A stretch of DNA of 64,000 nt from an uncultured virus (IMG/VR IMGVR_UViG_3300025168_000059) (Duplodnaviria; Heunggongvirae; Uroviricota; Caudoviricetes), in IMG/VR virus record IMGVR_UViG_3300025168_000059. One strand, 5' to 3'. Positions 28,059-45,187 of this stretch are shown here, in pieces. A program made the position numbers and the translations under genes. The notes beneath the pieces were generated by a model. The model saw only the letters and a program-made list of their open reading frames with translations, did no database searches and was not told where the DNA came from. Within the stretch, counting starts at the first letter, position 1, and each line of letters opens with the position of its first letter.

Positions 28059-28751
28059 TTATTTACTTTTTTTAGCTGCTATTGTTTTATTATCTTGCAT
28101 TCTATCATTTGCTGTATCACTAAATGTCCCTGACAATAACCCTAGCTCTCCGTTTATTAATCCACTATTAATCATATTTAACATATCTAAAGGAAGTGGG
28201 TACTCTGTGTCATGATTATAACACCCCCCTTCTTCACACCCATCAAATCTAGCTATATCTTCTGGGTCTTCAAACACTCCTCGTATGTTAATTGCTTCTA
28301 ATCCTTCAGCGTTGTAAATATATATATAATCTTCAATCATATATGCTTTTAAGTTTTCAGTTGTATATTTATCATAAGGCAACCATTGAATAGTATTAGA
28401 AGGAACAAATGGAATAGTTTTTGTTCCAGTAATATCTCCAACATAAGAAATTGCTTCTTCAAAATTATACCTTATAGTTTTTGGTATGCGTTTTTTACTT
28501 CTATACACAGAACATGTTGTTGGTAAAGAGCAGCACTTAGAAGCATCTACAGGCTCTAAGTGGACACACCCTAAATCTTGCTCAAGATGCCTACTATTAA
28601 ATCCGTTTCTAGAATAATCTCTTCTAACAAACATAGCTCTATAATGCTTAATGTTAAATTTAAGCTGCTCTAAAGATATATGCTCATCTGTGGTAGATCT
28701 TCCTCCTCTAACTAAGTTTAGTAGATTATATGCAATTTCGTTTAATGTCAT
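28059..28751 (-). CDS. Tail ring / tubular protein
   Basis: 230 aa. MTLNEIAYNLLN start, YIYIYN...IRGVFEDP and YPLP motifs. Confidence 0.7.
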   Translation of the reverse strand: MTLNEIAYNLLNLVRGGRSTTDEHISLEQLKFNIKHYRAMFVRRDYSRNGFNSRHLEQDLGCVHLEPVDASKCCSLPTTCSVYRSKKRIPKTIRYNFEEAISYVGDITGTKTIPFVPSNTIQWLPYDKYTTENLKAYMIEDYIYIYNAEGLEAINIRGVFEDPEDIARFDGCEEGGCYNHDTEYPLPLDMLNMINSGLINGELGLLSGTFSDTANDRMQDNKTIAAKKSK

Positions 28752-29143
28752 TATTTTTTTCTTTTTTCAATAGACCGCCCTCCAAAATAAGCTCCTATAA
28801 CAGTAATAAGAACTAATTGTAACAAGTCTGTCCATTTAGGTTCAACTTCAAAATTTATTGTACCTGCGTCTATAAATATCATTAATACAGTACTAACAAC
28901 TAAAAATACTAGTACCATTGGTCTTACATTTTTACTAAGCCATGAATCACTGTTCATATCAGCTTTCCATCTATCGCTAATTTGTTTTTCCATTTCTATT
29001 TCATAACTAGCTACAAGTTCTTTTATTTTTCTTTCTGCTTCTAGTTTTTCTTCTTTACTTGTATGTAAATTATCTATAACTCCCCCAACACCTTTTACAA
29101 GATCGGCTGCTCCACCTGAAAATAATTTTGTTAATATACTCAT
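28751..29143 (-). CDS. Holin (3TM, GTA-holin-like)
   Basis: RWKADMNSDSWLSKNVRP and GAYFGGRSIEK signatures with two hydrophobic helices. Confidence 0.8.
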   Translation of the reverse strand: MSILTKLFSGGAADLVKGVGGVIDNLHTSKEEKLEAERKIKELVASYEIEMEKQISDRWKADMNSDSWLSKNVRPMVLVFLVVSTVLMIFIDAGTINFEVEPKWTDLLQLVLITVIGAYFGGRSIEKRKK

Positions 29144-31385: not shown

Positions 31386-31844
31386 CTATATTACTTTATA
31401 TTTTGTTTTATTACTTTCATTTTTATATGCAAGTAAGCATCTATTTCTATTTTTTTCTTCAGAAACATAACTTACGTGTATCCATGCAGGATTTTTTTCA
31501 TTTCCAAATTCCCATATAAGCTGATCAAAATTTAAATTTTCTTTTATAAACTTATACATTTCTGCATTTGTTTTATGCCCAAAAGTATCATCTATATCTA
31601 TAGCCTGACCTTTACAATGTTGTGAACTTTTTGACCCTCCTATAGCTGTATTTAATTCTTCAGACCTAAAAAAACTATTAATTTTTACAGGACCGCTAAC
31701 CCAATTTCTTACCGGCTCAAATATTTGTTTAGCTATAATTTTCATATTATACAGCTGCTTTTCACCCGGTCTATTATTAATACCCCTTCTAATAGCAGTA
31801 TTACTATAAACTCCTTCTTTATCACTTATATGCTTACTTATCAT
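31386..31844 (-). CDS. Endolysin, peptidase M15 family
   Basis: SFFRSEELN..IGG..SSQHCKGQAIDI and WIHVSY Zn-ligand motifs. Likely start is ATG 31844 (MISKH). Confidence 0.88.
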   Translation of the reverse strand: MISKHISDKEGVYSNTAIRRGINNRPGEKQLYNMKIIAKQIFEPVRNWVSGPVKINSFFRSEELNTAIGGSKSSQHCKGQAIDIDDTFGHKTNAEMYKFIKENLNFDQLIWEFGNEKNPAWIHVSYVSEEKNRNRCLLAYKNESNKTKYKVI

Positions 31845-31846
31845 AA

Positions 31847-32209
31847 TTATGCTATTGACCAATATCCATACTCAAGTACACATGCTGCTGTATAAGCTTC
31901 CGCAGCAATTGCTAAAGAATTATATATAGGCATATATGCAAACTCTCCTACTCGTAATTTTAATATGTGATTTCCCCCAAATTTTACCTGCACAAATGAT
32001 GCATTGTTCTCAGAAGAAATTACTTTTAAATATACATAAGAAAAAGCTGAGTTACTTGCTACTACATCCTGCGCTGAACCTGTAGCTATAGACTTTCTAG
32101 ATAATTCTGTTGGGTTTGTTGTTGCTAAGCTATCGTTTACTGTTACGCCTAATACATCGGTCATAGCATCGTTGCTAGATAGTGTTAAGCCTACTTTTAG
32201 TGTTGCCAT
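31847..32209 (-). CDS. Small beta-rich virion protein (paralog of 32239-32604)
   Basis: Shares MxTLxVxLxLxS, YVYLK and GEF/QEF motifs with its neighbour. Confidence 0.55.
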   Translation of the reverse strand: MATLKVGLTLSSNDAMTDVLGVTVNDSLATTNPTELSRKSIATGSAQDVVASNSAFSYVYLKVISSENNASFVQVKFGGNHILKLRVGEFAYMPIYNSLAIAAEAYTAACVLEYGYWSIA

Positions 32210-32238
32210 ATTATTTTATTTTATTTTAATTATTATTA

Positions 32239-32604
32239 TTATACTTCAAATAGAAGCAATTCCATAACAGGTGTACCAGCGTCTGCATCATAACACAAAT
32301 CCTCATCTCCAGACCATGAAAAGAATATAAATTCTTGTGCTCCTATATCATGAATATTTGCAGAATCAGTTGCTCCAGTTCTGATATGAATCTTTTCTGT
32401 TGTTTTTATACTTAAGTTTTTTAGATACACATAACATTTACCATAATCATCTGCTTCTAAAAATTTAGCAGCATTTGTTGAAGTAGCAAATCTTTTTTGA
32501 ACCACATCTTTAGTAAAAGCTACAGTATCTGATTGATTCAAAGTTAGACTGTCACTAGTAGCATTAGTACTAGTTAAACCTAATTTTACTGTTAATGTTC
32601 CCAT
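32239..32604 (-). CDS. Small beta-rich virion protein (paralog of 31847-32209)
   Basis: Same shared motifs as 31847-32209. Confidence 0.55.
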   Translation of the reverse strand: MGTLTVKLGLTSTNATSDSLTLNQSDTVAFTKDVVQKRFATSTNAAKFLEADDYGKCYVYLKNLSIKTTEKIHIRTGATDSANIHDIGAQEFIFFSWSGDEDLCYDADAGTPVMELLLFEV

Positions 32605-32615
32605 AATTTTTAATT

Positions 32616-35378
32616 TTATTTATTAATTTTTATTTTTCTAATTACACTTCCGTCGTCATATATAAACAACAAAAGTGTATTGTCTCTAATTGTATTTACT
32701 GGTCTTCCTAATAAATCTGTAATCATTATTAAAGTTTTAGCTCCTCTTTTAAGTAAAGGCCCAGACCAAGTACCTTGACAATAATCATATGTAGCTTGAC
32801 ATATAGTATCCCATTCATTTTCACAACAATATTCATCTACATCTATTACCCAGGCGTAACAAGGGTCATTGAGCCAATAAGGACTACCCGGACCAGTGAT
32901 ACAATCAGCGCTATATAAGCAAGAAGCAGAGTCATTAACATTAGCTTCAATATTATAATTCCACGCATTGACATCCATACAGCCTTGCACCACAGTAATA
33001 CACGAACCGTTATCAGTATTAGCTGTTGAATCATAATTAAGAGCAGTATTATCCATACACCCATAAACATAAGGAACGCAGCTAAAATCTTCAGTATTAG
33101 CGGATGAGTTGTAATTAAGCATACTAGGATCAGTACAACCATAAATAAAAGATATACAAGAATTATTGTCAACATTGGCTAAAGGGTTAAAATTAAACAT
33201 TATTGAATCTGTACAACCATAAACAAATGGAATACAGTTTCCATTATCTGTATTTGCTAATGGGTCATAATTAAACATAGTAGCATCCATACAACCATAG
33301 ACTACAGGAATACAACTTTCATCAGTAATATTTGCAAGAGGATTATAGTTAAAAGCATCCGGATCCATACAACCATATGTTACTCCTATACAACTACCGT
33401 CATCTGTATTAGCACTAATATTGTAATTAAAAGCTATAGGAGAAGTACATCCATAAATAATTGGAGTACAAGAACCAGGTGTATTTGCTTGTGGATTGTA
33501 ATTAAAAGAACCAACTACCATACACCCAACTACAACAGGAACACACCCTCCATTATCTACATTAGCAGAAAGATTAAAATTAAATGCATTTGGGTCAGTA
33601 CATCCAAAAACAGCTAAATTATTACAACTACCATTATCTATATCAGCTACAAAACCTTGAGTATAGTATTGTAAATACCCAGGATTTGTACATCCAGGAT
33701 TGTAGTAGCATGTATCTGCTGTATTAGCTGTATCATTATAGTTATACGCAGATTGATCTAAACATCCATAAATTATATCTATACACTCATTTCCACAGTA
33801 AGGTAAAGCAGTATAAATATCTTCTGGATTTTTAAAGTTTTTTAATTTATTTTCATTAGGTCCAGGCCAAGGGTTGTCACCTTCATAGAGTATAACTCCA
33901 TACGTATTTTCTAACTTAAATGAATTTTGTATTGTTTGTATATCTAATTGTTGTGCATTTTGTTGAGGAGTAGGTATTTCAAAATAATAAAGATATACTT
34001 CTTCATATGCACTTAGTGATAAATTAAATGTATCAGAATATACACCATTTGAATTAATTCTAAATTGCCATAAATTAGTGCCTTGTCTTACTCCTAACCA
34101 ACAATTACCCCAACTGTCACCTCCAGCATCATATAATATTAAATCGTAAGTGCATGGAGATGTTAATTCCATTCTATGTGCTGCTGGATCATAATTAAAA
34201 GCACTTGAATCTATACACCCATATAATGCTATTGTACTACAACTACCGTCATCAATTGTAGCTAACTCATTGTACTCTAAGTAATCTTCATCAATGCAGC
34301 CATATATAGTAGTATCATTACTACATGAATCTGAAGCATAAGGATTTGATGAAGCACTGTACCCAAAGTTAGGTGGATTTAAAATAAACACTGTATCTTC
34401 ACAGTCTAAGTTTTTTACAATACAGCTACCAACTACAGAACCACCTCCAATACCATCACCGTAGGTATCGTTTATAGTAAATACAATAGTATCACTAATA
34501 GGCACACAAACTTCAGTAAATACTGTTTGTCCTGTTTGTGTATAGTCATATGTCCCAGCTGGCACAGTATATATTATATTACCACCAGATGTTATTTCCC
34601 AAGAAGTTTCGCCAGGCCAATTGTCTAATAGTATTGCAACTTCTATTAATGATTGTCCAGAACTACAACTGACTTCCATTACACAAGTGCCATCGTCTAC
34701 ATTTGCCCACGGATTATAATTTTCTGCTAAAGAGTTCATACAGCCATTAATATAAATACAACCAATATTTATAGTAGCTGTAGAATCATAATTAGGTGCT
34801 ACAGTATCTGTACACCCATAAATTATAGAATATGGATTACTAATCATTATATCATCTATACATATATCGCTAGTAAAACTAGTCCCAGTATTTCCTACAA
34901 ATGCTATTTTAAAGTTATTTTGTAGATTAAAACTGTCTAATGGATAATAACCTAATTTCCATGCCATACCTTGATCTCCGTTGTATGCATCTATAAAAAT
35001 ATAATTACCAAAGCTATCTACTATAGCTACTTCAAGCTCTCCCATTGCTGGTCCAAACATGTGATACCAAAAAGATAATACCTTGCCAGGAGTAACAGAT
35101 ACGTCAAATGTTGGTGTATATGTTATAAACTGTTTACTAGGATAATTAGGAGATGATGATTCTACATAAAAATAAACACCATTACTAGTTGTGTGATCTC
35201 CTTGTGGGCCTGTATTAAATGAGGATGTTTCACCTATTTTTAACAACCAATCACCATCATCATTTTGATCTTGTTGTAATGGTAAATTATTTTCAAAATT
35301 ATGTACCCAAGGAAAAGTATTAACTTGCCCAATCCCTATAAAAGGTAATAGTAATAATAATAATAATAGTTTTTTCAT
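32616..35378 (-). CDS. Secreted MAM-domain protein with Cys repeats and T9SS-like C-terminal sorting domain
   Basis: Signal peptide MKKLLLLLLLLPFIGIG|Q. MAM motifs TGPQGDHT, YFYVESS, LSFWYHMFG, DICIDDI. About 15 GCxDxxAxNYxxxAxxDDGSC repeats. C-terminus ITDLLGR...LFIYDDGSVIRKIK. Confidence 0.8.
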   Translation of the reverse strand: MKKLLLLLLLLPFIGIGQVNTFPWVHNFENNLPLQQDQNDDGDWLLKIGETSSFNTGPQGDHTTSNGVYFYVESSSPNYPSKQFITYTPTFDVSVTPGKVLSFWYHMFGPAMGELEVAIVDSFGNYIFIDAYNGDQGMAWKLGYYPLDSFNLQNNFKIAFVGNTGTSFTSDICIDDIMISNPYSIIYGCTDTVAPNYDSTATINIGCIYINGCMNSLAENYNPWANVDDGTCVMEVSCSSGQSLIEVAILLDNWPGETSWEITSGGNIIYTVPAGTYDYTQTGQTVFTEVCVPISDTIVFTINDTYGDGIGGGSVVGSCIVKNLDCEDTVFILNPPNFGYSASSNPYASDSCSNDTTIYGCIDEDYLEYNELATIDDGSCSTIALYGCIDSSAFNYDPAAHRMELTSPCTYDLILYDAGGDSWGNCWLGVRQGTNLWQFRINSNGVYSDTFNLSLSAYEEVYLYYFEIPTPQQNAQQLDIQTIQNSFKLENTYGVILYEGDNPWPGPNENKLKNFKNPEDIYTALPYCGNECIDIIYGCLDQSAYNYNDTANTADTCYYNPGCTNPGYLQYYTQGFVADIDNGSCNNLAVFGCTDPNAFNFNLSANVDNGGCVPVVVGCMVVGSFNYNPQANTPGSCTPIIYGCTSPIAFNYNISANTDDGSCIGVTYGCMDPDAFNYNPLANITDESCIPVVYGCMDATMFNYDPLANTDNGNCIPFVYGCTDSIMFNFNPLANVDNNSCISFIYGCTDPSMLNYNSSANTEDFSCVPYVYGCMDNTALNYDSTANTDNGSCITVVQGCMDVNAWNYNIEANVNDSASCLYSADCITGPGSPYWLNDPCYAWVIDVDEYCCENEWDTICQATYDYCQGTWSGPLLKRGAKTLIMITDLLGRPVNTIRDNTLLLFIYDDGSVIRKIKINK

Positions 35379-35379
35379 T

Positions 35380-35709
35380 TTAAAAATCGCTCATTAATAA
35401 TTCATCTATTTCTTCTTGTACTTCTTTTTTTGTTGATACCATTTTAAAAGACAAGTCAGCTTGAAACCTAAGTGCTTCTTCTCCATCTTTAAATATTATA
35501 ATAGTAGGTACAACTGCTATTTTATATTTTTTTGCATCATCAGAACTCTTACCTATATCTATGTAGCCTTTTGTTTGACACTCAGATAACCCCATAAACC
35601 ATTCAACATCATTAGCTTTATTCCACTCAGCATTAAAATGCTTTGCTGTAATCTGCGCAAAAGCTCCTCCTCCTGTAAAAAATATTATTAAGATAAGTAT
35701 ATATCTCAT
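35380..35709 (-). CDS. Exported thioredoxin-fold protein lacking CxxC
   Basis: Signal peptide ending AFA|Q. HFNAEWN in place of F.A.WC..C, and KYKIAVVPTIIIFKDGEE cis-Pro motif. Confidence 0.7.
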   Translation of the reverse strand: MRYILILIIFFTGGGAFAQITAKHFNAEWNKANDVEWFMGLSECQTKGYIDIGKSSDDAKKYKIAVVPTIIIFKDGEEALRFQADLSFKMVSTKKEVQEEIDELLMSDF

Positions 35710-35987
35710 CGGTTATATAATTTATCTTCTATTTTTTCCATAGATTTTTTAATTTCTTCTACATCTTTTTGAGTTGTTATAATAGTGTTACGAATCATTT
35801 GATCTTTCATGTCAAACTCCATTCTAGTAACTTCTGGATCTGGAGGTGCCGGCAACTCTTTAGCTTCTTCTATATCAGCTTGTAAAGCAAACCACATGCC
35901 TATTATAGTTGCCATTGCAAAACTTATAGCTATAAGTGTTTTAACACTTATATTAAATCCAGTATCTTCATTTAACTCTTTAGCCAT
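35706..35987 (-). CDS. Single-TM coiled-coil membrane protein
   Basis: TM LIAISFAMATIIGMWFAL, Pro linker, then a coiled coil. Confidence 0.6.
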   Translation of the reverse strand: MAKELNEDTGFNISVKTLIAISFAMATIIGMWFALQADIEEAKELPAPPDPEVTRMEFDMKDQMIRNTIITTQKDVEEIKKSMEKIEDKLYNR

Positions 35988-35988
35988 T

Positions 35989-36198
35989 TTAATTCCAAAA
36001 TATTAATTTACCTAATATACCTATTAAAACTAACCAAATAGACCAAAGGGTTTTTTGAGTAGCTTTTCTAAAACTAGTATTTCTATTAACTCGTGAGATA
36101 GTTCCATCGTCTGGATCTAACAATCTTTTTTTAATAAATCTCACATCTTCTTTTAAATCTCTTAACTCTTCGTGTATTTGTTTATTAGTAATAGGCAT
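35989..36198 (-). CDS. Small coiled-coil protein with C-terminal TM
   Basis: 69 aa. C-terminal LWSIWLVLIGILGKLIFW. Confidence 0.55.
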   Translation of the reverse strand: MPITNKQIHEELRDLKEDVRFIKKRLLDPDDGTISRVNRNTSFRKATQKTLWSIWLVLIGILGKLIFWN

Positions 36199-36201
36199 AG
36201 C

Positions 36202-36372
36202 TTATAATTCAAATCCAAAATTCAATACTATAATTCTAAATCTATTAGAAGTACAATCTTTTGTGCAGAATAAACATACCTTCATTTCTAATACTGTTAT
36301 TCTACCTAATCTAAAAGTAATTTCATACTTTTCTTTTTTATTTCCTTTAGCCCAACTATTAATCCAATTCAT
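36202..36372 (-). CDS. Small hypothetical protein (56 aa)
   Basis: Not in the ORF track. MNWINSWAKGNKKEKYEITFRLGRITVLEMKVCLFCTKDCTSNRFRIIVLNFGFEL. Has an ATGA overlap with the upstream stop and fills the gap exactly. Confidence 0.65.
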   Translation of the reverse strand: MNWINSWAKGNKKEKYEITFRLGRITVLEMKVCLFCTKDCTSNRFRIIVLNFGFEL

Positions 36373-36458
36373 TTCGTTTCAGTTTTAGTTGTTTTTTCGT
36401 GAGAACCATCGCAGCTCCCATCTTCAGATTTTGTCTTACCACATGCACATTTTGCCAT
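36369..36458 (-). CDS. 29-aa CDGSH-type [2Fe-2S]-binding peptide
   Basis: Not in the ORF track. MAKCACGKTKSEDGSCDGSHEKTTKTETK with an A-rich leader. Translationally coupled to the next ORF. Confidence 0.7.
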   Translation of the reverse strand: MAKCACGKTKSEDGSCDGSHEKTTKTETK

Positions 36459-36470
36459 AATTTTATTGTT

Positions 36471-37616
36471 TTAAAATATTATATAATTAACTCCTAATTT
36501 AAAGTCGTACCACTCTCTGTTCCAGTATTTGTTATACTTACCCTCAACAAAATATCCTAGATTTTTATTTACTTTTATCCCATATATTAAACCTGCAGAA
36601 TAGTCGTACCACTGGTCGTCTTCTATATAGTTATGATATGAAAACTCACTACCATCATTGTAATGCCAAGGTAATAAATTACCCCATGCGTGTAACCATG
36701 TTTTTTTAGTGTACTTATAATAATCAAATCCTATAATTAAAGAGTGTTGAATTTGTTTTTCTAATTCATTTCTTTTTCTTTCAGAATAGTCAGATAAAAC
36801 TTGAGGAACAACAACTTCTTTCCATACCTCAGCATTTGTAGCAACTATATTTCCAGTAGGATCACTATATTCATTTGCATATACATTCACGTTATAACCC
36901 TCTTGTATAGCTAAATACGTATAATGTAAATTTCCATTGTTTAGCATCCATTCTTCTAAAGGATTATACCCATAAGGTTCAGCTAATCTATGCGCAGCAC
37001 CTATACTAAAAGATAAATCTGCATTTTTTTTCCATCTATATCTTTCTGACAATTCAAAATATTCTATGTCAGCAAAACCGTCTTTTAAATACTCTACTTT
37101 TGCAGCAAAATGATCAACACATAAAGGACCATCACAATTATCATCTGAGCTATATCTAATAAAATGATGCTGATCTATATAATCTACTCCTTGTTGTCTA
37201 GCATAATCTACTTCAAAAAGATATTCAAACCCTTGCACCTTACCTACTGTAGCTGCGTCTGTATAGTTTGACTCTGTACCATCATAAAAAGTATTTGCTC
37301 TGTTTTCATAACCAAATCTGGCAATCTTTCTTATACCTACAGTTAAAGAATAGTCATAAGGAGTTGATATAATTCCTTCTTGTAGTTGTCCTGATGTTAC
37401 TGAAAATGTTTTTGCATCAGATACAGAAGTACCCCCATTTACTGCTCCATAAACTGTCGAAAATTTTAAATGTTTTTTTAAAGTTTTCTTTATATCAAAA
37501 TTTTGTAAATATGATTTTATATCAGTATTAGTTTCTTGCGAACAACATTTTTTAGGTGTTAAGCACGAAACTAGTATTATCTTAAAAATTATACAAACTA
37601 AAATTATTTTTTTCAT
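36471..37616 (-). CDS. Putative outer-membrane beta-barrel protein
   Basis: Signal peptide (possible ..CCS|Q or lipobox LVSC). Aromatic amphipathic strands (LGYFVEGKY, FKLGVNYIIF) and a terminal Phe beta-signal. Confidence 0.7.
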   Translation of the reverse strand: MKKIILVCIIFKIILVSCLTPKKCCSQETNTDIKSYLQNFDIKKTLKKHLKFSTVYGAVNGGTSVSDAKTFSVTSGQLQEGIISTPYDYSLTVGIRKIARFGYENRANTFYDGTESNYTDAATVGKVQGFEYLFEVDYARQQGVDYIDQHHFIRYSSDDNCDGPLCVDHFAAKVEYLKDGFADIEYFELSERYRWKKNADLSFSIGAAHRLAEPYGYNPLEEWMLNNGNLHYTYLAIQEGYNVNVYANEYSDPTGNIVATNAEVWKEVVVPQVLSDYSERKRNELEKQIQHSLIIGFDYYKYTKKTWLHAWGNLLPWHYNDGSEFSYHNYIEDDQWYDYSAGLIYGIKVNKNLGYFVEGKYNKYWNREWYDFKLGVNYIIF

Positions 37617-37626
37617 ATTACTTAAA

Positions 37627-38382
37627 TTAAGATATTGGTGTTGTTAAGCTAAAAGTTGCATTACCACTTAATGTTCCAGTTAAATTTAAAAATCCAAAAT
37701 CAGCTATTGAAGTTCCTTCTCCTTCATTAAATTTCCATAAATTTAGTAAGTTAAGAGAAGATATATAATTACCTGCATTACCGTCTACTGGAATTGGTAC
37801 TCCGCTATTATATAAATTTAGTATTTCTGCACCAGCTAATAATTTGTTGTGTATAGCAACTTGATATAGTAACCCTTTAAATGCTTGATTGCCAGCAGCG
37901 TTATCATCACCAATTCTATTGAAAGTAATATTTCTAGATTCAGATGCGCCAAAATTTGTATTAGATACAACAACAGCACTTCCATCTTCAAATGCGGCAA
38001 CAGTTGCGGCATCTCCGGTTTTCCCTGTAATAGTTATAGCATAATGATGCCAATTAGTATCAGCAGTAACAGCAGCATAAGCTTCTTGACCATTTAAATC
38101 ACTTTCTATATAAAGTTTATCGCCAGCAGAATCAAAATAAAGACGTTTAAATGATCCTGATCCTGAATGCCCTAGTACAACAGCTTCATCATTATTGTCA
38201 GTTCTTTTAGCCCAAAAAGATATAGTAAGATTATTTCCTCCAGCATTTATTTCATATGTCTGATCTTCAAAAGTAACAAAGTCAGTTGTTCCGTCAAGTG
38301 CTAGTGAATGCAAAGATACTTTTGGTGCATCTAAATACTGAGGTTTAGCCATGCTTACTCCTAATCCTAACATTGGTGCCAT
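37627..38382 (-). CDS. LamG/concanavalin A-like virion protein
   Basis: SLALDGTTDFV, TISFWAK, WHHYAIT, FKGLLYQVAI, WKFNEGEG. Confidence 0.8.
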   Translation of the reverse strand: MAPMLGLGVSMAKPQYLDAPKVSLHSLALDGTTDFVTFEDQTYEINAGGNNLTISFWAKRTDNNDEAVVLGHSGSGSFKRLYFDSAGDKLYIESDLNGQEAYAAVTADTNWHHYAITITGKTGDAATVAAFEDGSAVVVSNTNFGASESRNITFNRIGDDNAAGNQAFKGLLYQVAIHNKLLAGAEILNLYNSGVPIPVDGNAGNYISSLNLLNLWKFNEGEGTSIADFGFLNLTGTLSGNATFSLTTPIS

Positions 38383-40660: not shown

Positions 40661-43600
40661 TTATTGTTGCCAAGCAGGTGGTATGTTACAGTCTTTACAA
40701 TATTTATTTACAAATTTAAGAAAATTATCGTAATAATTGATATTTGTAGTTATATCTACAAAATTATTATCTGAACACTGTGCATAATTTCCACTAGCAA
40801 TTCCAGTTGCTGTTTCTGGATTTAAACCATTTAAAGCAAATGCAAATGGACTTCCTTGATTAGTAGTTATACTTATTACTTTCCAAATTAATCCGCTAGG
40901 CATTTTAATAACATCTCCTAAACCAAGTTTATGACTAGCTACAAAAAATAATGCAGGATCAGTAATTGTAGTTCCTTCTCCAGATGTCCACGAAGTTCCT
41001 AAAACAGGAGACCCACTTGTTGCAGCATCATTTAAACCTGTATATTTACTGCCTTGCACCCAAAGGTCATTACAATTATTAATAATAGTATTTATGTCAG
41101 GTGTTCCTTTATCTGCACAATTAAATAAACATCCTAATCCAAATCCATTTTCACTTTTAGCAGCTTTTAACACATATCCTAATAGTATTAGTTTCCACTT
41201 ATTCATTGTAGAGCAATCTACATTTGTACCTATTTTATATTCATCAAGCCAATTACTACCTTTTTGAGCTAAACAAGCTTTTAGTGTTAATATAGCTTTT
41301 TTTAAATGTTTAGGTATGCATCTATTTTTTTCATTTATGTACTCACAACTACCATCATCTGTTATTGCATTAGGATTATAATTTGCTGCGTTAGGATCTG
41401 TACAACCTCCATAGATACAACTTCCATCATCACAAGTTGCTGTTGGATCATAATTAACTGCTAAAGGATCTGTACATCCAGCTCCTGGAGCGCTAGAGCT
41501 TATAGAAAAAGTTGTTTCTACAATACAAGAAAGATTATCTATTGTACGTAATACATATACTCCTGGAGGTAGTCCTGTAACTATAACTGTAGCACCGTCA
41601 AGCGCTAAAGTTCCGTAAAATGCAAAGTGGTCCCAAATTTGATTTGCAGAACTACAACATACTCCAGTAAAAATAGCTGCTTGGAAAGCTGTAGATCCAT
41701 TTGTAGAATTATATGTAAATGTTAGTTGTCCATCTGAATTTGGACCCGTACAAGTACCAGTAGCATCTGTAGTTGTAATAAGTATATTAGGTGGATCTGC
41801 ACAAGGTAAGTTACAACATGGCGGATCACTAACAGTTGCTGTAGGAATATATATTCCACAATCACAACTGTATTCAAAATTAGTAGCTGCAGGATCTAAA
41901 CATGCTTTATACTCACAAGTACCATCATCTACTGTTGCGGCAGGATCATAATTTATTGCACAAGAATCTGTACACCCATCTGAACCAGAAGGTAAGCAGT
42001 TAACTTGACAATCTATTACAGTTGCATAAGTACCTGTACCATCACCTGGATCAACACATCCAAGCACAGGATCGCAATTATAAGATTCAAATATACAAGG
42101 TCCTGGACACTGAGCAACCGGATTATAATTTAGTGCCAGTGGATCTAAACACCCATCACTAGGTTGTGTCCAATAAATACTAACACTATAAATACACGGA
42201 GTACCATCTGCTAAAAGTCTATGTAATTCAAAAGTATATGTACCTGTCCCATATTGATTCATAAGAGAAGTAGAGGTTGAATCTATTAGTAGACTATTAG
42301 TCCCCATTTGCCCACCATTACTTTCCGGACCTGTTACTCCTAGCCCATAGCCAGAAACATCATTAGCCGCTCCTTGTGTAAATTGATTAGCAACAGGAAC
42401 GCCATTAAATAACCAAACCTGAGTACGAAATCCTCCATCTGCACCTGTCATAAATGTACCAGCAGCAAATCCAGTACCATTACAACCAGCTCCTCCATAT
42501 CCAACCATAAAAGCTCCCCACACGGTTGGATTACACAAACTTGCATTAAGTAAATTATTAGTGCAATTTGGTACGCAATCACAAAAGTTATAATTAGGGT
42601 CATCACTTATTTCTATTGCAGGAATTGCAACTGGACAATTAGGGTTAGAAACACTAGAGCATAGTGAAGCATCAGGTATTCTAAAGTCACTTGGCACTGT
42701 TGTGTTATAATCTGGATTTAATGGGTCATCGCAAACCGGAACTTTTACTGTAATATATATCCAAGTAAAACACTCTTCAACTTCTAAAACATGATTTGAA
42801 TCAACAAATTGTACTTTAACCGCATAGTGCCCATAAGCTAAACCTGTAAAAGAATTCTGAGGATTGTAACTAAAAGTAGTAGAAGCTATCCCTGTTTGTG
42901 TTGAAATTACTGATCCTATAGTAGTAGGATCTCCAGGTATTGTAACAGGATAAATAGCCATTGTATAAGTCTCAGTAGACCCAAGACTTACATATGATTG
43001 TAAAGCAGGATCTAAAATTGTTCCTATAGCGGCAATACCGTCAGATTGTGGAACATTACTTGCATTTACAGTTGCATCAGTAATAACAGCTGTATGATTA
43101 GTAAATAGATCTCCTAGATCATTTCCATTTGTATCTTCTAATTTTCCTGTAGTAGCATCACATAAAAGACAACTTCCATCGTCATTAACTGCAGAAGCGT
43201 CATAATTTATTGCAGTATTATCAGTACAGCCATCAGGAGGTGGACATTGCGTAAGAGTTACATTTGTTGTAATTACACATCCCGAGTCATCTGTAACTGT
43301 TAAAATATAATGTGTTCCTGCTAAAGCGCCTTCATTAGGAGCAAGACTTCCAAAATAAAATCTAAATCCAGCTGCAAAAGTTAAAGTTACTGTAGCAGCT
43401 GCTGTTGCTTGAACAGTATTTCCTACTGCATCTTGAAGTGAAAACCTTGTTACATTAGTACCCGCTGTTCCAGTCAAAATAGTATCAACATAAGTTCCAG
43501 CTGGTATCCCCGCCCCACTTACTTCCATCCAAGGTACAATAGTACTACTAGATGGGCAAGTAACTTGATGTTCTGTTCCACCTGTTGTGTTTGTTACACA

Positions 43601-45187
43601 ACTAGCTTGAGTAACTGTATTTCCTCCTGTTGGAGGCGTTGTTTGAGTTAACGATGTTCCATTACTTAAAGCTAAAGTATATGTAAATTTACTACCACTA
43701 GCAAAAGGGTCTCCTGTTGGAACTATACTAGTCCACGGAGGATCAGTAGTTGTAACTTCTATATATCCATCACTTCGGCCAAAACCTACACACTGCGTAA
43801 TTGCTTCAACTTGCAGTAAACATCCTGAACAACAAACGTTATTAGGAACAAACGTAGTAATATTATGGTTTACTCCTCCAGGTAAATTATCTGTCGGAAT
43901 AGTTGCTCCAGTACAATCTTGACTAGTTGTTAAATAATATAAAGGGTCACCAAAATTATCACACACATTAAAAACATGAAGAGGATTAGGGGGAACAGGA
44001 GCTGTTAAATTTTCTGCATAAAATATTTTATATGTATAATAATAGTGAGGGTTAACACCAACACCATCAAGTCCTCTAGTAGCTAATTCATATGCTGCAC
44101 TCCAAGTCATAACATTGTCACCTAAAGAGTCCCATATATCAGCAGTTATATATCTTGATCCAATTTCAACTAGTGGGTCTATAGGGGAATAAGTAGCTTG
44201 TGGAAAAGATGCGGGAGTATAAGTTCCTTGCATAAAACCAATGTTTGCATTCATTGTAGCTTTTATTCCTGCAAGATCCATAAGAGTACCATTTTGTGTC
44301 TCTAAATCACCGTGCCATTGAGGATTATTTTCTTGTAAAATAAAATCTATTTTGTGCCATTCTTGCCTATTACTATTAAACGCATCAGGAGTAGTAAGTC
44401 CATTTAATCCATACATATGAGCCAATCTATCGTTATGACTTGTCATAGTAGTACCATCTAAAAAACAAGTAGTTAAATTAGATTGAGGATGTGCTGGTAT
44501 TTCTACAAGTTGTTCAGAAGATGTAAAAGATGGATTAGTATTTATTCCTCCAAGTGTTGTAGCATTAATCCCACCCCATTTACTAAATATATGATAAGGC
44601 GTATTTACAAGCGGACTACCAGGAGCACCTCCTTTCTCAAATGATGCTTGTCGAGTAACTGAATAAAAATTATTTATAGGAACACCCATACCATCAACAG
44701 CTGCCTGACTATGAGCACTATAATAACCACTTGAAGCATTAAAACCTGCACCATACGTATTACCAGCCAATGTTAAATTTGGCATATCTAACATAAATTT
44801 TGTGTTATATGCGCCACTAAAATGCTTAAATATAACTAAAGGAACGTTAAAAACTTCAATATGCCCAGTTGTAAAAGTAACTTGAATGTTTCTTATTGAA
44901 ACAAGTTGTGTACTAGCAATAGGAAACGGAAACACGTACCTAATTGCTATAGTACCACCAGAATATCCCGCAGTAGGAAGAAGTACCCCAGGCTGTATAG
45001 TCCCACCTAAAGCACCATCTCCAGTTACATCTTGTGCATCAACTATATAATCCCATCCACTACCACTATTTTTTTGATCCGAAATTAAAATTTCTGGTCT
45101 TGGAGAAGAATATCCGCCATTACTACCAGGAATAACTCCAAAAAATATAGGAGGATTTGATGTTATAGTAATTAATCTTTTATTCAC
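40661..45187 (-). CDS. Large Cys-rich structural/adhesin protein with GCTD and SprB-like repeats
   Basis: 1508 aa, no signal peptide. Repeats GCTDPxAxNYDPxAxxDDGSC and segments like VTGLPPGVYVLRTIDNLSC and YILTVTDDSGC. Confidence 0.65.
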   Translation of the reverse strand: MNKRLITITSNPPIFFGVIPGSNGGYSSPRPEILISDQKNSGSGWDYIVDAQDVTGDGALGGTIQPGVLLPTAGYSGGTIAIRYVFPFPIASTQLVSIRNIQVTFTTGHIEVFNVPLVIFKHFSGAYNTKFMLDMPNLTLAGNTYGAGFNASSGYYSAHSQAAVDGMGVPINNFYSVTRQASFEKGGAPGSPLVNTPYHIFSKWGGINATTLGGINTNPSFTSSEQLVEIPAHPQSNLTTCFLDGTTMTSHNDRLAHMYGLNGLTTPDAFNSNRQEWHKIDFILQENNPQWHGDLETQNGTLMDLAGIKATMNANIGFMQGTYTPASFPQATYSPIDPLVEIGSRYITADIWDSLGDNVMTWSAAYELATRGLDGVGVNPHYYYTYKIFYAENLTAPVPPNPLHVFNVCDNFGDPLYYLTTSQDCTGATIPTDNLPGGVNHNITTFVPNNVCCSGCLLQVEAITQCVGFGRSDGYIEVTTTDPPWTSIVPTGDPFASGSKFTYTLALSNGTSLTQTTPPTGGNTVTQASCVTNTTGGTEHQVTCPSSSTIVPWMEVSGAGIPAGTYVDTILTGTAGTNVTRFSLQDAVGNTVQATAAATVTLTFAAGFRFYFGSLAPNEGALAGTHYILTVTDDSGCVITTNVTLTQCPPPDGCTDNTAINYDASAVNDDGSCLLCDATTGKLEDTNGNDLGDLFTNHTAVITDATVNASNVPQSDGIAAIGTILDPALQSYVSLGSTETYTMAIYPVTIPGDPTTIGSVISTQTGIASTTFSYNPQNSFTGLAYGHYAVKVQFVDSNHVLEVEECFTWIYITVKVPVCDDPLNPDYNTTVPSDFRIPDASLCSSVSNPNCPVAIPAIEISDDPNYNFCDCVPNCTNNLLNASLCNPTVWGAFMVGYGGAGCNGTGFAAGTFMTGADGGFRTQVWLFNGVPVANQFTQGAANDVSGYGLGVTGPESNGGQMGTNSLLIDSTSTSLMNQYGTGTYTFELHRLLADGTPCIYSVSIYWTQPSDGCLDPLALNYNPVAQCPGPCIFESYNCDPVLGCVDPGDGTGTYATVIDCQVNCLPSGSDGCTDSCAINYDPAATVDDGTCEYKACLDPAATNFEYSCDCGIYIPTATVSDPPCCNLPCADPPNILITTTDATGTCTGPNSDGQLTFTYNSTNGSTAFQAAIFTGVCCSSANQIWDHFAFYGTLALDGATVIVTGLPPGVYVLRTIDNLSCIVETTFSISSSAPGAGCTDPLAVNYDPTATCDDGSCIYGGCTDPNAANYNPNAITDDGSCEYINEKNRCIPKHLKKAILTLKACLAQKGSNWLDEYKIGTNVDCSTMNKWKLILLGYVLKAAKSENGFGLGCLFNCADKGTPDINTIINNCNDLWVQGSKYTGLNDAATSGSPVLGTSWTSGEGTTITDPALFFVASHKLGLGDVIKMPSGLIWKVISITTNQGSPFAFALNGLNPETATGIASGNYAQCSDNNFVDITTNINYYDNFLKFVNKYCKDCNIPPAWQQ

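Follow-up and report, generated by a model that had tools for sequence, protein, structure and literature searches.

The subject of this analysis is a stretch of 64,000 nucleotides (nt) of DNA from an uncultured virus (IMG/VR record IMGVR_UViG_3300025168_000059; hereafter the window) and, within it, a cassette of seven open reading frames (ORFs) that encode, among others, predicted membrane and exported proteins (Table 1). A preliminary description had taken these genes for a single system that displays an adhesin on the infected cell together with its own barrel partner and folding helper. We find that three of the genes, which encode a putative outer-membrane beta-barrel (g381), a predicted inner-membrane coiled-coil protein (g93) and an exported thioredoxin fold (g109), appear from comparison of related loci to form a trio that is inherited as a block and is older and more widespread than the large adhesin-like protein encoded beside it (g920, the 'cargo').

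Judged by gene content, the source is a divergent member of the crAss-like phages: PHROGs profiles recognise terminase, portal and major capsid protein, the last of which shares ~32% identity with capsid proteins of crAss phages, and crAss ring proteins 1, 2 and 3/4 (tail ring) are encoded in the window. Every gene lies on the minus strand, and fibre-like genes, lysis genes and the cassette make up one block between the ring genes. The seven cassette ORFs are indeed as tightly coupled as first described, each lying -4 to +12 nt from the next. Across the window, the cassette, the holin and tm70 account for every predicted membrane or exported protein. Promoter-like sites are not in excess (68 versus 70.9 ± 7.2 in shuffled sequences), and terminator-like sites number 3 (3.5 ± 1.6 in shuffles), with none on the coding strand. 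Given neither an excess of sites nor a coding-strand terminator, we read the cassette as part of one long late transcription unit.

The region 31386-38382 was found, among the sets listed, in marine DNA metagenomes only and in no RNA set, and the nearest record (G001) carries an identical barrel. Cultured relatives were sought by comparing the barrel with 50,697 phage records, where it had no match; a megablast of the region was also negative.

Table 1. Features of the cassette and of the lysis genes in the window.
Feature	Coordinates	Strand	Basis
g381, putative outer-membrane beta-barrel, 381 amino acids (aa)	36471..37616	-	AlphaFold 2 (AF2) model and fold searches
29-aa ORF with CDGSH, doubtful gene	36369..36458	-	no family match
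56-aa ORF, variable accessory	36202..36372	-	28/80 related loci
69-aa protein with C-terminal membrane helix, variable accessory	35989..36198	-	hydrophobic segment, residues 50-68
g93, predicted inner-membrane coiled-coil protein, 93 aa	35706..35987	-	hydrophobicity and alignment
g109, predicted exported thioredoxin fold without catalytic cysteines, 109 aa	35380..35709	-	profile versus PDB
g920, MAM/Cys-repeat 'cargo', 920 aa	32616..35378	-	Pfam MAM and repeat count
conserved C-terminal 110 aa of g920	32619..32948	-	alignments of homologues
M15 endolysin, downstream of cargo	31386..31862	-	Pfam Peptidase_M15_3 6e-14; PHROG endolysin 3e-28
tm70, 70 aa, two membrane helices	29147..29359	-	two hydrophobic segments; adjoins holin
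holin	28751..29143	-	PHROG phrog_3427 6e-32; Pfam GTA_holin_3TM 2e-5

Conserved genes and their predicted products

The barrel matched 227 stretches in IMG/VR viral contigs, and 80 related loci were examined, in which the presence of each cassette gene was scored by tblastn. All seven ORFs proposed for the cassette are present and tightly packed in the window, but only four are conserved across these loci: the barrel occurs in all 80, g93 in 76 (at 54-90% identity), g109 in 71 and a g920-like gene in 71, most of the misses being loci that end at contig ends. The anticipated co-occurrence in marine phage contigs holds for barrel, g93, g109 and cargo, but not for the remaining ORFs, which are variable. 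The 56-aa ORF was scored in 28 loci (jackhmmer recovers further homologues in 40 loci of a second clade introduced below) and has no family match; the 69-aa ORF was found in 21, and in the window's clade only. As for the CDGSH peptide of the preliminary description, the 29-aa ORF does read ...SCDGSH..., but its single occurrence is the window's own near-identical record, the motif recurs in none of the other related loci, and the ORF matches nothing in Pfam (E<=0.1, zf-CDGSH included), NCBIfam or PHROG; its standing as a gene of the system is unsupported. Two membrane proteins had been described, and both are there, the 69-aa protein and g93, the latter with its helix at residues 13-36.

A Sec-exported outer-membrane beta-barrel of about 14 strands is supported, as a structural prediction, for g381. 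The AF2 model, for which the alignment included relatives down to 24% identity, has 14 long strands (predicted local distance difference test, pLDDT, 77.7; predicted template modelling score, pTM, 0.72), so that the protein combines a signal peptide with an even strand number and likeness to solved outer-membrane barrels. Foldseek against PDB returned six matches at E<=0.001, all of them outer-membrane barrels (best NanC, 7e-6). VIA, a search independent of Foldseek, gave 14 chains at Z>=8 with 12- to 14-strand outer-membrane barrels on top, led by the EstA autotransporter barrel (Z 11.4, root-mean-square deviation 4.8, 180 residues aligned), Tsx (Z 11.4) and KdgM (Z 10.8); one chain in the translocon entry 6h3i (type IX secretion system, T9SS) reached Z 7.6. 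The barrel that the preliminary description had proposed from sequence is thus borne out by both searches, and the protein does end in Phe (...NYIIF). Across the family the last residue is F, R or K, and Y378 and N377 are conserved. The overall fold resembles that of autotransporter translocators, Tsx, NanC/KdgM and OmpG (VIA Z 9-11.4), but sequence similarity to these barrels is absent, and g381 has no passenger domain while carrying a 31-residue turn (residues 98-128) and a helix-containing insert of 75 residues (213-287).

Sequence searches place the barrel in no named family. PDB yielded no match by sequence, and 34 family members compared with Pfam at E<=0.1 gave five single-member chance matches only, none of them to PorP_SprF (PF11751); barrel, g93 and g109 of two clades had no PHROG match. 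The ESM Atlas clusters nearest to the barrel are viral 'hypothetical proteins', and Phage_OMP, DUF6850, Autotransporter and OmpG (score 0.93, <170 shared features) are leads only. Metagenome protein sets contain 3660 homologues at E<=0.001, the best 120 of which are 70-84% identical and marine; identity to the window's barrel is 55-83% over 79 related loci. The best-conserved long segment, in a clade-weighted comparison of 238 homologues, is the turn between strands 4 and 5, which we infer from the usual topology of such barrels to be periplasmic. Conserved polar residues sit in the barrel strands.

The barrel family appears to be phage-only, being found only in viral sequence; for the most distant representative (P0221) we found no viral locus. 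Bacterial matches in GTDB genomes (barrel 5 loci, cargo tail 3 loci; L082-L086, L247, L248) all lie on contigs of metagenome-assembled genomes (MAGs) whose labels are mutually inconsistent (Parvibaculum, Nitrosopelagicus, Rickettsiales for a 120-kb contig, Maricaulis). Because these labels cannot all be right, we regard the contigs as probably mis-binned phage contigs.

The second member of the trio, g93, is predicted by its topology to be an inner-membrane protein with a periplasmic coiled-coil helix. Its membrane helix, headed by the invariant K16, leads into a brief linker rich in Pro and then a helix at the C-terminus, where the last 45 aa are heptad-like in pattern; against PDB we obtained only weak matches to GCN4 coiled coils (E 0.37).

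For g109, an exported thioredoxin fold devoid of the redox-active CxxC, as had been proposed, is supported by profile comparison. A family profile of 27 homologues matched 202 PDB sequences at E<=0.01 (best 2.3e-13), and the best 60 of these 202 are all thioredoxin-type or thioredoxin-derived chains; the single sequence stays below the cutoff for Pfam Thioredoxin (PF00085; 5e-4, 20.4 bits versus 23.5). Like thioredoxins, g109 has the cis-Pro loop, with P68 invariant and T69 nearly so. It differs from them in that FNAEWNKAN (WN[KS]xN in the family) stands at the position of WCGPC, both active-site cysteines being replaced (CxxC to N..N), in being exported and, in the window's clade, in the loss of the first thioredoxin strand and helix. 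CxxC occurs anywhere in only 7 of 223 homologues. Lacking these cysteines, g109 cannot catalyse disulfide exchange.

Signal peptides were judged by eye, with a crude regular expression and by hydrophobicity. In all three exported proteins of the window, as noted at the outset, Gln directly follows the hydrophobic N-terminus, after GIG, AFA (g109) or CCS, and homologues keep the pattern: across the three clades the barrels show it in 79/80, 77/79 and 76/77 cases and the thioredoxins in 71/71, 65/65 and 80/84, and 58/58 cargo homologues have [AGS]Q behind the hydrophobic N-terminus. Note that the N-terminus of the window's barrel can also be read as a lipobox (LVS before Cys) besides a signal-peptidase-I site before Gln; its relatives have SC..PKKCCAQ or plain ..AQ, with the Gln nearly invariant. 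A Bacteroidetes Q-rule is the subject of two papers available to us in part (PMC5837995, PMC10653852), and the accessible text of a third notes proteins that obey it in Porphyromonas gingivalis phages (PMC10367356). A Bacteroidota-like host, as first suggested, is supported.

The trio in three phage clades

Two further clades were reached through distant relatives of the barrel in a library clustered at 50%: P0137 (second clade; 96 viral stretches with relatives) and P0166 (third clade; 222 stretches, on contigs of up to 167 kb), bringing the viral stretches that encode barrel relatives to 545. Barrels of different clades are ~33-37% identical. ORFs were called on all loci and searched with jackhmmer from the window's proteins, and lysis genes were sought with three endolysin families and one holin family. 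Among loci with full flanks, g93 and g109 accompany the barrel in 36 and 36 of 36 cases in the window's clade, 39 and 38 of 42 in the second and 36 and 36 of 36 in the third, and g93 is the best-conserved trio member across clades. In 50 of 75 third-clade loci g93 is the immediate neighbour of the barrel, with no gene intervening. Loci of the second and third clades contain neither the cargo's tail domain nor a Por_Secre_tail-like ORF. Since the trio occurs in two clades that lack the cargo tail domain, it does not need the cargo, and the original notion of the barrel and thioredoxin fold as the cargo's own partner and folding helper is weakened accordingly.

What the trio does keep close to it are lysis genes. 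A recognised endolysin or holin is present in 28/36, 33/42 and 27/36 full-flank loci of the window's, second and third clade, at a median distance from the trio of 2992, 3 and 340 nt, respectively. The larger distance in the window's clade arises because the cargo gene sits between the trio and the nearest lysis gene; in the window itself the endolysin is ~3.5 kb away. The arrangement can be unbroken, as in L185, from a 164-kb phage genome, in which a tm70-like gene, barrel, g93, g109, an endolysin (PG_binding_1 and Amidase_2) directly adjacent to the trio, and a holin (Phage_holin_4_1) follow one another, with ribonucleotide reductase genes on the other side. The tm70 gene, which adjoins the holin in the window, has third-clade homologues that lie a median of 15 nt away from the barrel.

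The lysis region of L185 holds further envelope proteins: after the holin come a signal-peptide protein of 141 aa (L185:11534-11956; OMP_b-brl match weak at E 0.0018) and a membrane coiled-coil protein of 370 aa. Other loci carry exported proteins of different kinds beside the trio. One, in the second clade (L107:8056-8772, L123:8028-8795, L095:8702-9430, L087:9539-10453), is 240-305 aa long, with a signal peptide, a Cys-rich start and no Pfam match; its tail reads ..YNLNGQAI....GLYIE.GKIKY and may be a second kind of cut-down sorting tail. Third-clade loci with a lipoprotein include L168-L170, L179, L223, L227, L230, L231, L235 and L241. One lipoprotein family begins ..GC[TED]K[DE]E, which we take to resemble the Bacteroidota signal for surface lipoproteins; another, of 127-140 aa with an Asn/Ser/Pro-rich end, is reminiscent of o-spanins. 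A GH16 glycoside hydrolase (L095:8047-8751; 8e-16) directly follows the barrel in one second-clade locus, and staphylococcal-nuclease homologues (L095:11802-12155, L205:9762-10163) directly follow the thioredoxin gene.

The cargo and its C-terminal tail

g920 is the MAM/Cys-repeat protein that had been described, with a MAM domain at residues 34-180 (PF00629; 72.4 bits versus a cutoff of 26.4, E 5e-20), 45 Cys, 12 copies of a 21-aa repeat (GCxDxxAxNYxxxAxxDDGSC) and the C-terminus as quoted at the time. Its N-terminus reads MKKLLLLLLLLPFIGIG followed by Gln, and in all of 42 related loci a signal peptide and then Gln open the large ORF that lies downstream of the thioredoxin gene. The body varies among homologues, with MAM in some (4 of 16 tested) and other domains elsewhere; the last ~105 aa are conserved. 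This conserved C-terminal domain is found in the window's clade only (58 ORFs), apart from 3 copies on MAG contigs. Gene order within the clade is barrel-g93-g109-cargo in 43 loci, g93-g109-cargo-barrel in 13 and cargo-barrel-g93-g109 in 1.

Whether the tail is a T9SS sorting domain, as first proposed, depends on the test applied. The last 110 aa consist of a Cys-rich segment and a short tail of ~40 aa (ITDLLGR...IYDDGSVIRKIKINK), whose end, ...SVIRKIKINK, aligns with the last strand of homologues that have a canonical C-terminal domain (CTD). With a Sec signal and a Lys-rich last strand (motif E), g920 has two features of type-A cargo. Por_Secre_tail scores above cutoff in 4 of 16 homologues (L018, L020, L059, L079; 33.7-43.9 bits versus 27), and jackhmmer finds it in 5 loci of the window's clade and 2 MAG loci. 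However, the suggested check with a TIGR04183-type hidden Markov model (HMM) was negative: no T9SS HMM (PF18962/TIGR04183; Pfam, NCBIfam) matched the whole protein or its last 50, 80 or 160 aa, even at E<=10. Relative to a canonical CTD, the tail lacks a segment of 20 columns (the ..YPNP.. part) and one of 13 columns. The AF2 model of the last 110 aa (pLDDT 60.6 as a whole) has three strands in the last 40 aa (pLDDT ~81), confidence being low in the remainder, and a type-A CTD is a seven-strand Ig-like beta-sandwich according to the text available of PMC10202324. By alignment, then, the tail appears to descend from a type-A CTD without being a member by the defining tests. The same review describes one CTD of which the last 22 aa are enough to secrete green fluorescent protein, and states a requirement for the final 13 residues, lysines included; a working short signal in g920 is therefore possible, and so is T9SS surface display of the protein.

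Could g920 be a part of the virion, such as a fibre or decoration folded in the oxidising periplasm and added to particles only at lysis, or a protein whose signal-like N-terminus is never used? Its gene sits among tail-fibre genes, and the 21-aa Cys repeat recurs 5 times in the neighbouring 1508-aa fibre-like protein as well as in an ORF of Synechococcus phage S-CAM3 annotated as 'virion structural protein'. The likeness to the 1508-aa protein, however, is limited to this generic repeat, the signal peptide with its Gln is retained in every one of the 58 homologues, and in five homologues the C-terminus is a genuine T9SS sorting domain. Moreover, the conserved end of the protein is its C-terminus, whereas it is usually the N-terminus that attaches a fibre to the particle. 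We consider a virion part very improbable.

The 1508-aa protein (40661-45187) has a GTG start, no signal peptide and 58 Cys. With it in mind we also asked whether the cargo duplicates the receptor-binding protein of the phage itself, and rejected this, the repeat being all that the two have in common. In four loci (L042, L072, L073, L075) the thioredoxin gene is followed by an ORF of 175-177 aa whose C-terminal region contains ..AHY[KR]SDS..G.., presumably akin to a PAP2-type phosphatase motif.

Possible roles at the cell envelope

We tentatively favour, at somewhat short of an even chance, a reading with two units: an envelope-spanning trio linked to lysis and a clade-specific adhesin-like protein that leaves the cytoplasm via Sec and is probably handled by T9SS. 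The folds, the export signals, the co-inheritance of the trio in at least three divergent clades of marine Bacteroidota phages, its nearness to lysis genes and the homology of the cargo's tail to a CTD are directly supported. The trio's three products, placed by prediction at the inner membrane, in the periplasm and at the outer membrane, have the layout needed to act across the envelope. In this reading g381, g93 and g109 would form a complex reaching from the inner to the outer membrane. Such a complex would act late in infection at the outer membrane, the last barrier, and do a spanin-like job with unrelated parts, g93 serving as an i-spanin-like anchor, the barrel standing in for the o-spanin lipoprotein and the thioredoxin fold acting as an adaptor. 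g920, for its part, would be adhesin-like: it has a Sec signal, its binding domains vary (MAM and the 12 Cys repeats in the window) and its C-terminal module is conserved. Most likely it is first sent to the periplasm, from where the host's T9SS would probably pass it to the cell surface or the medium, the short tail presumably still conferring dependence on that machinery. A role of the trio in disrupting the outer membrane, or in a closely related step of lysis, is a conjecture from gene neighbourhood that we would back with some hesitation.

The comparison with two-component spanins (lambda Rz/Rz1; PMC6139136, available in part) is instructive in both directions. As with these, inner- and outer-membrane phage proteins are set with holin and endolysin genes, and g93 has the predicted layout of an i-spanin (N-in, C-out), namely a single membrane helix at the N-terminus and, in the periplasm, a portion that is helical or a coiled coil. 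There is, however, no sequence relation, the outer-membrane part is a barrel of ~14 strands rather than a small Pro-rich lipoprotein, and the trio has a constant third, periplasmic member with a thioredoxin fold. The neighbour of g93 is a thioredoxin of signal-peptidase-I type and not a lipoprotein ORF, and the window as a whole contains no classical spanin pair of lipoprotein and membrane protein. With a barrel in place of the small lipoprotein and an obligatory third member, the trio is not a spanin by membership as spanins are defined in the text available to us. Among 677 phages with Gram-negative hosts, Kongari et al. (2018) report 91 in which no spanin was found (PMC6139136), so that outer-membrane breakers still to be discovered are to be expected.

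Several observations weigh against a lysis device. The argument for it is one from gene neighbourhood, and late, structural and lysis genes cluster in these phages anyway. No spanin known to us is built on a barrel or a thioredoxin fold. At only ~55 aa, the periplasmic part of g93 is short for crossing the periplasm, and conserved positions of the barrel lie on both inferred faces (34 periplasmic versus 25 external). With the endolysin and holin families searched, 8/36, 9/42 and 9/36 full-flank loci have neither gene. The small secreted Cys-rich protein of the second clade stands beside the barrel in 75 loci, and 13 third-clade loci have a lipoprotein between barrel and g93; a variable exported 'fourth gene' is thus a frequent companion of the trio, as would suit display or anchoring too. 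In 42 of 57 loci of the window's clade the cargo follows g109 by no more than 700 nt, and the two often overlap. As regards the cargo half of the reading, the tail is not a seven-strand sandwich and fails all T9SS HMMs.

Alternatively, the four conserved genes would be one surface-display system, with the barrel as the adhesin's outer-membrane anchor or shuttle in the manner of PorP/SprF, g109 as a folding helper and g93 as an inner-membrane tether, so that a phage adhesin is shown for exclusion, aggregation or attachment. All four genes occur together in 36/36 full-flank loci of the window's clade, each with a positional g920 homologue; a variable body on a conserved C-terminal module is what one would expect if the module docks on conserved partners; a protein with 45 Cys needs oxidative folding outside the cytoplasm; and the second and third clades often have a different exported protein beside the barrel. 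Type-B cargo genes, too, are usually clustered with cognate PorP/SprF barrel genes in Bacteroidota, as far as the available portions of PMC10202324 and PMC9143113 go, which makes for a secreted protein beside a dedicated barrel much as here. But none of the 34 barrel family members matches PorP_SprF or another relevant Pfam family, the tail is of type-A rather than type-B descent, and the barrel also occurs without cargo, in clades that have neither tail domain nor Por_Secre_tail-like ORF; in the third clade barrel and g93 often adjoin each other. A thioredoxin without cysteines is no disulfide catalyst, and display leaves the nearness to lysis genes unexplained. We judge a common display system to be unlikely.

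It is perhaps no less doubtful that the trio remodels the envelope to some other end, be it superinfection exclusion, masking of receptors on cells or debris that would spare progeny, the timing of lysis or an enzyme or pore activity of the barrel. Phage-encoded outer-membrane proteins with exclusion- or remodelling-type roles exist, examples being Llp of phage T5 and Lom and Bor of lambda. The barrel family is phage-only, highly conserved and abundant, it has conserved polar residues in the strands and a strongly conserved turn, and VIA also lists the barrel enzymes LpxR (Z 9.1) and OMPLA (Z 8.1). These enzymes match no better than plain porins, however, and PADLOC matched none of the 11 proteins tested, cassette proteins included. 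Exclusion genes, moreover, are usually variable accessories, whereas the trio is core, as the conservation of the barrel across the related loci illustrates.

Returning to the two-unit reading, the cargo would be a variant of the phage T9SS cargo already on record, and the trio matches no described system. Our literature search, which covered few subscription journals, found nothing on the trio. For the cargo there is one precedent in print, a phage-encoded T9SS type-A cargo in the 'Cryophage' (Bellas et al. 2020, PMC7468147). In the part of that paper available to us, variable phage genes likewise carry a type-A sorting domain and are presumed to be secreted by the host machine. There the products are a glycoside hydrolase or PA14 protein, here an adhesin-like MAM/Cys-repeat protein with a ~40-aa remnant that eludes the HMMs; in this crAss-like phage its gene is fixed beside the conserved trio of envelope proteins.

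Spanins were defined in phages of Proteobacteria, and for those of Bacteroidota the way through the outer membrane has yet to be established. A phage-only trio beside lysis genes, present on hundreds of viral contigs from the ocean, offers a concrete candidate. If the lysis reading is true, the trio is a new class. A bolder version, which we hold to be rather doubtful, would make it a third class of outer-membrane disruption machinery, specific to Bacteroidota phages, widespread in the ocean and replacing spanins, with the short cargo tail as a natural minimal T9SS signal that places a variable adhesin on the infected cell. Should it not be a lysis device, the trio would still be a core envelope system of one of the most abundant groups of marine phages. 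crAss-like phages, in addition, carry variable proteins addressed to the Sec and T9SS routes of their hosts, and the cargo homologues form a natural series from full to truncated sorting domain that could define the minimal T9SS signal.

Between cargo and endolysin, finally, lie two tandem paralogues of ~120 aa (32239-32604 and 31847-32209). They have no family match, and their homologues are found in 48/79 loci of the window's clade and 23/78 loci of the second clade.

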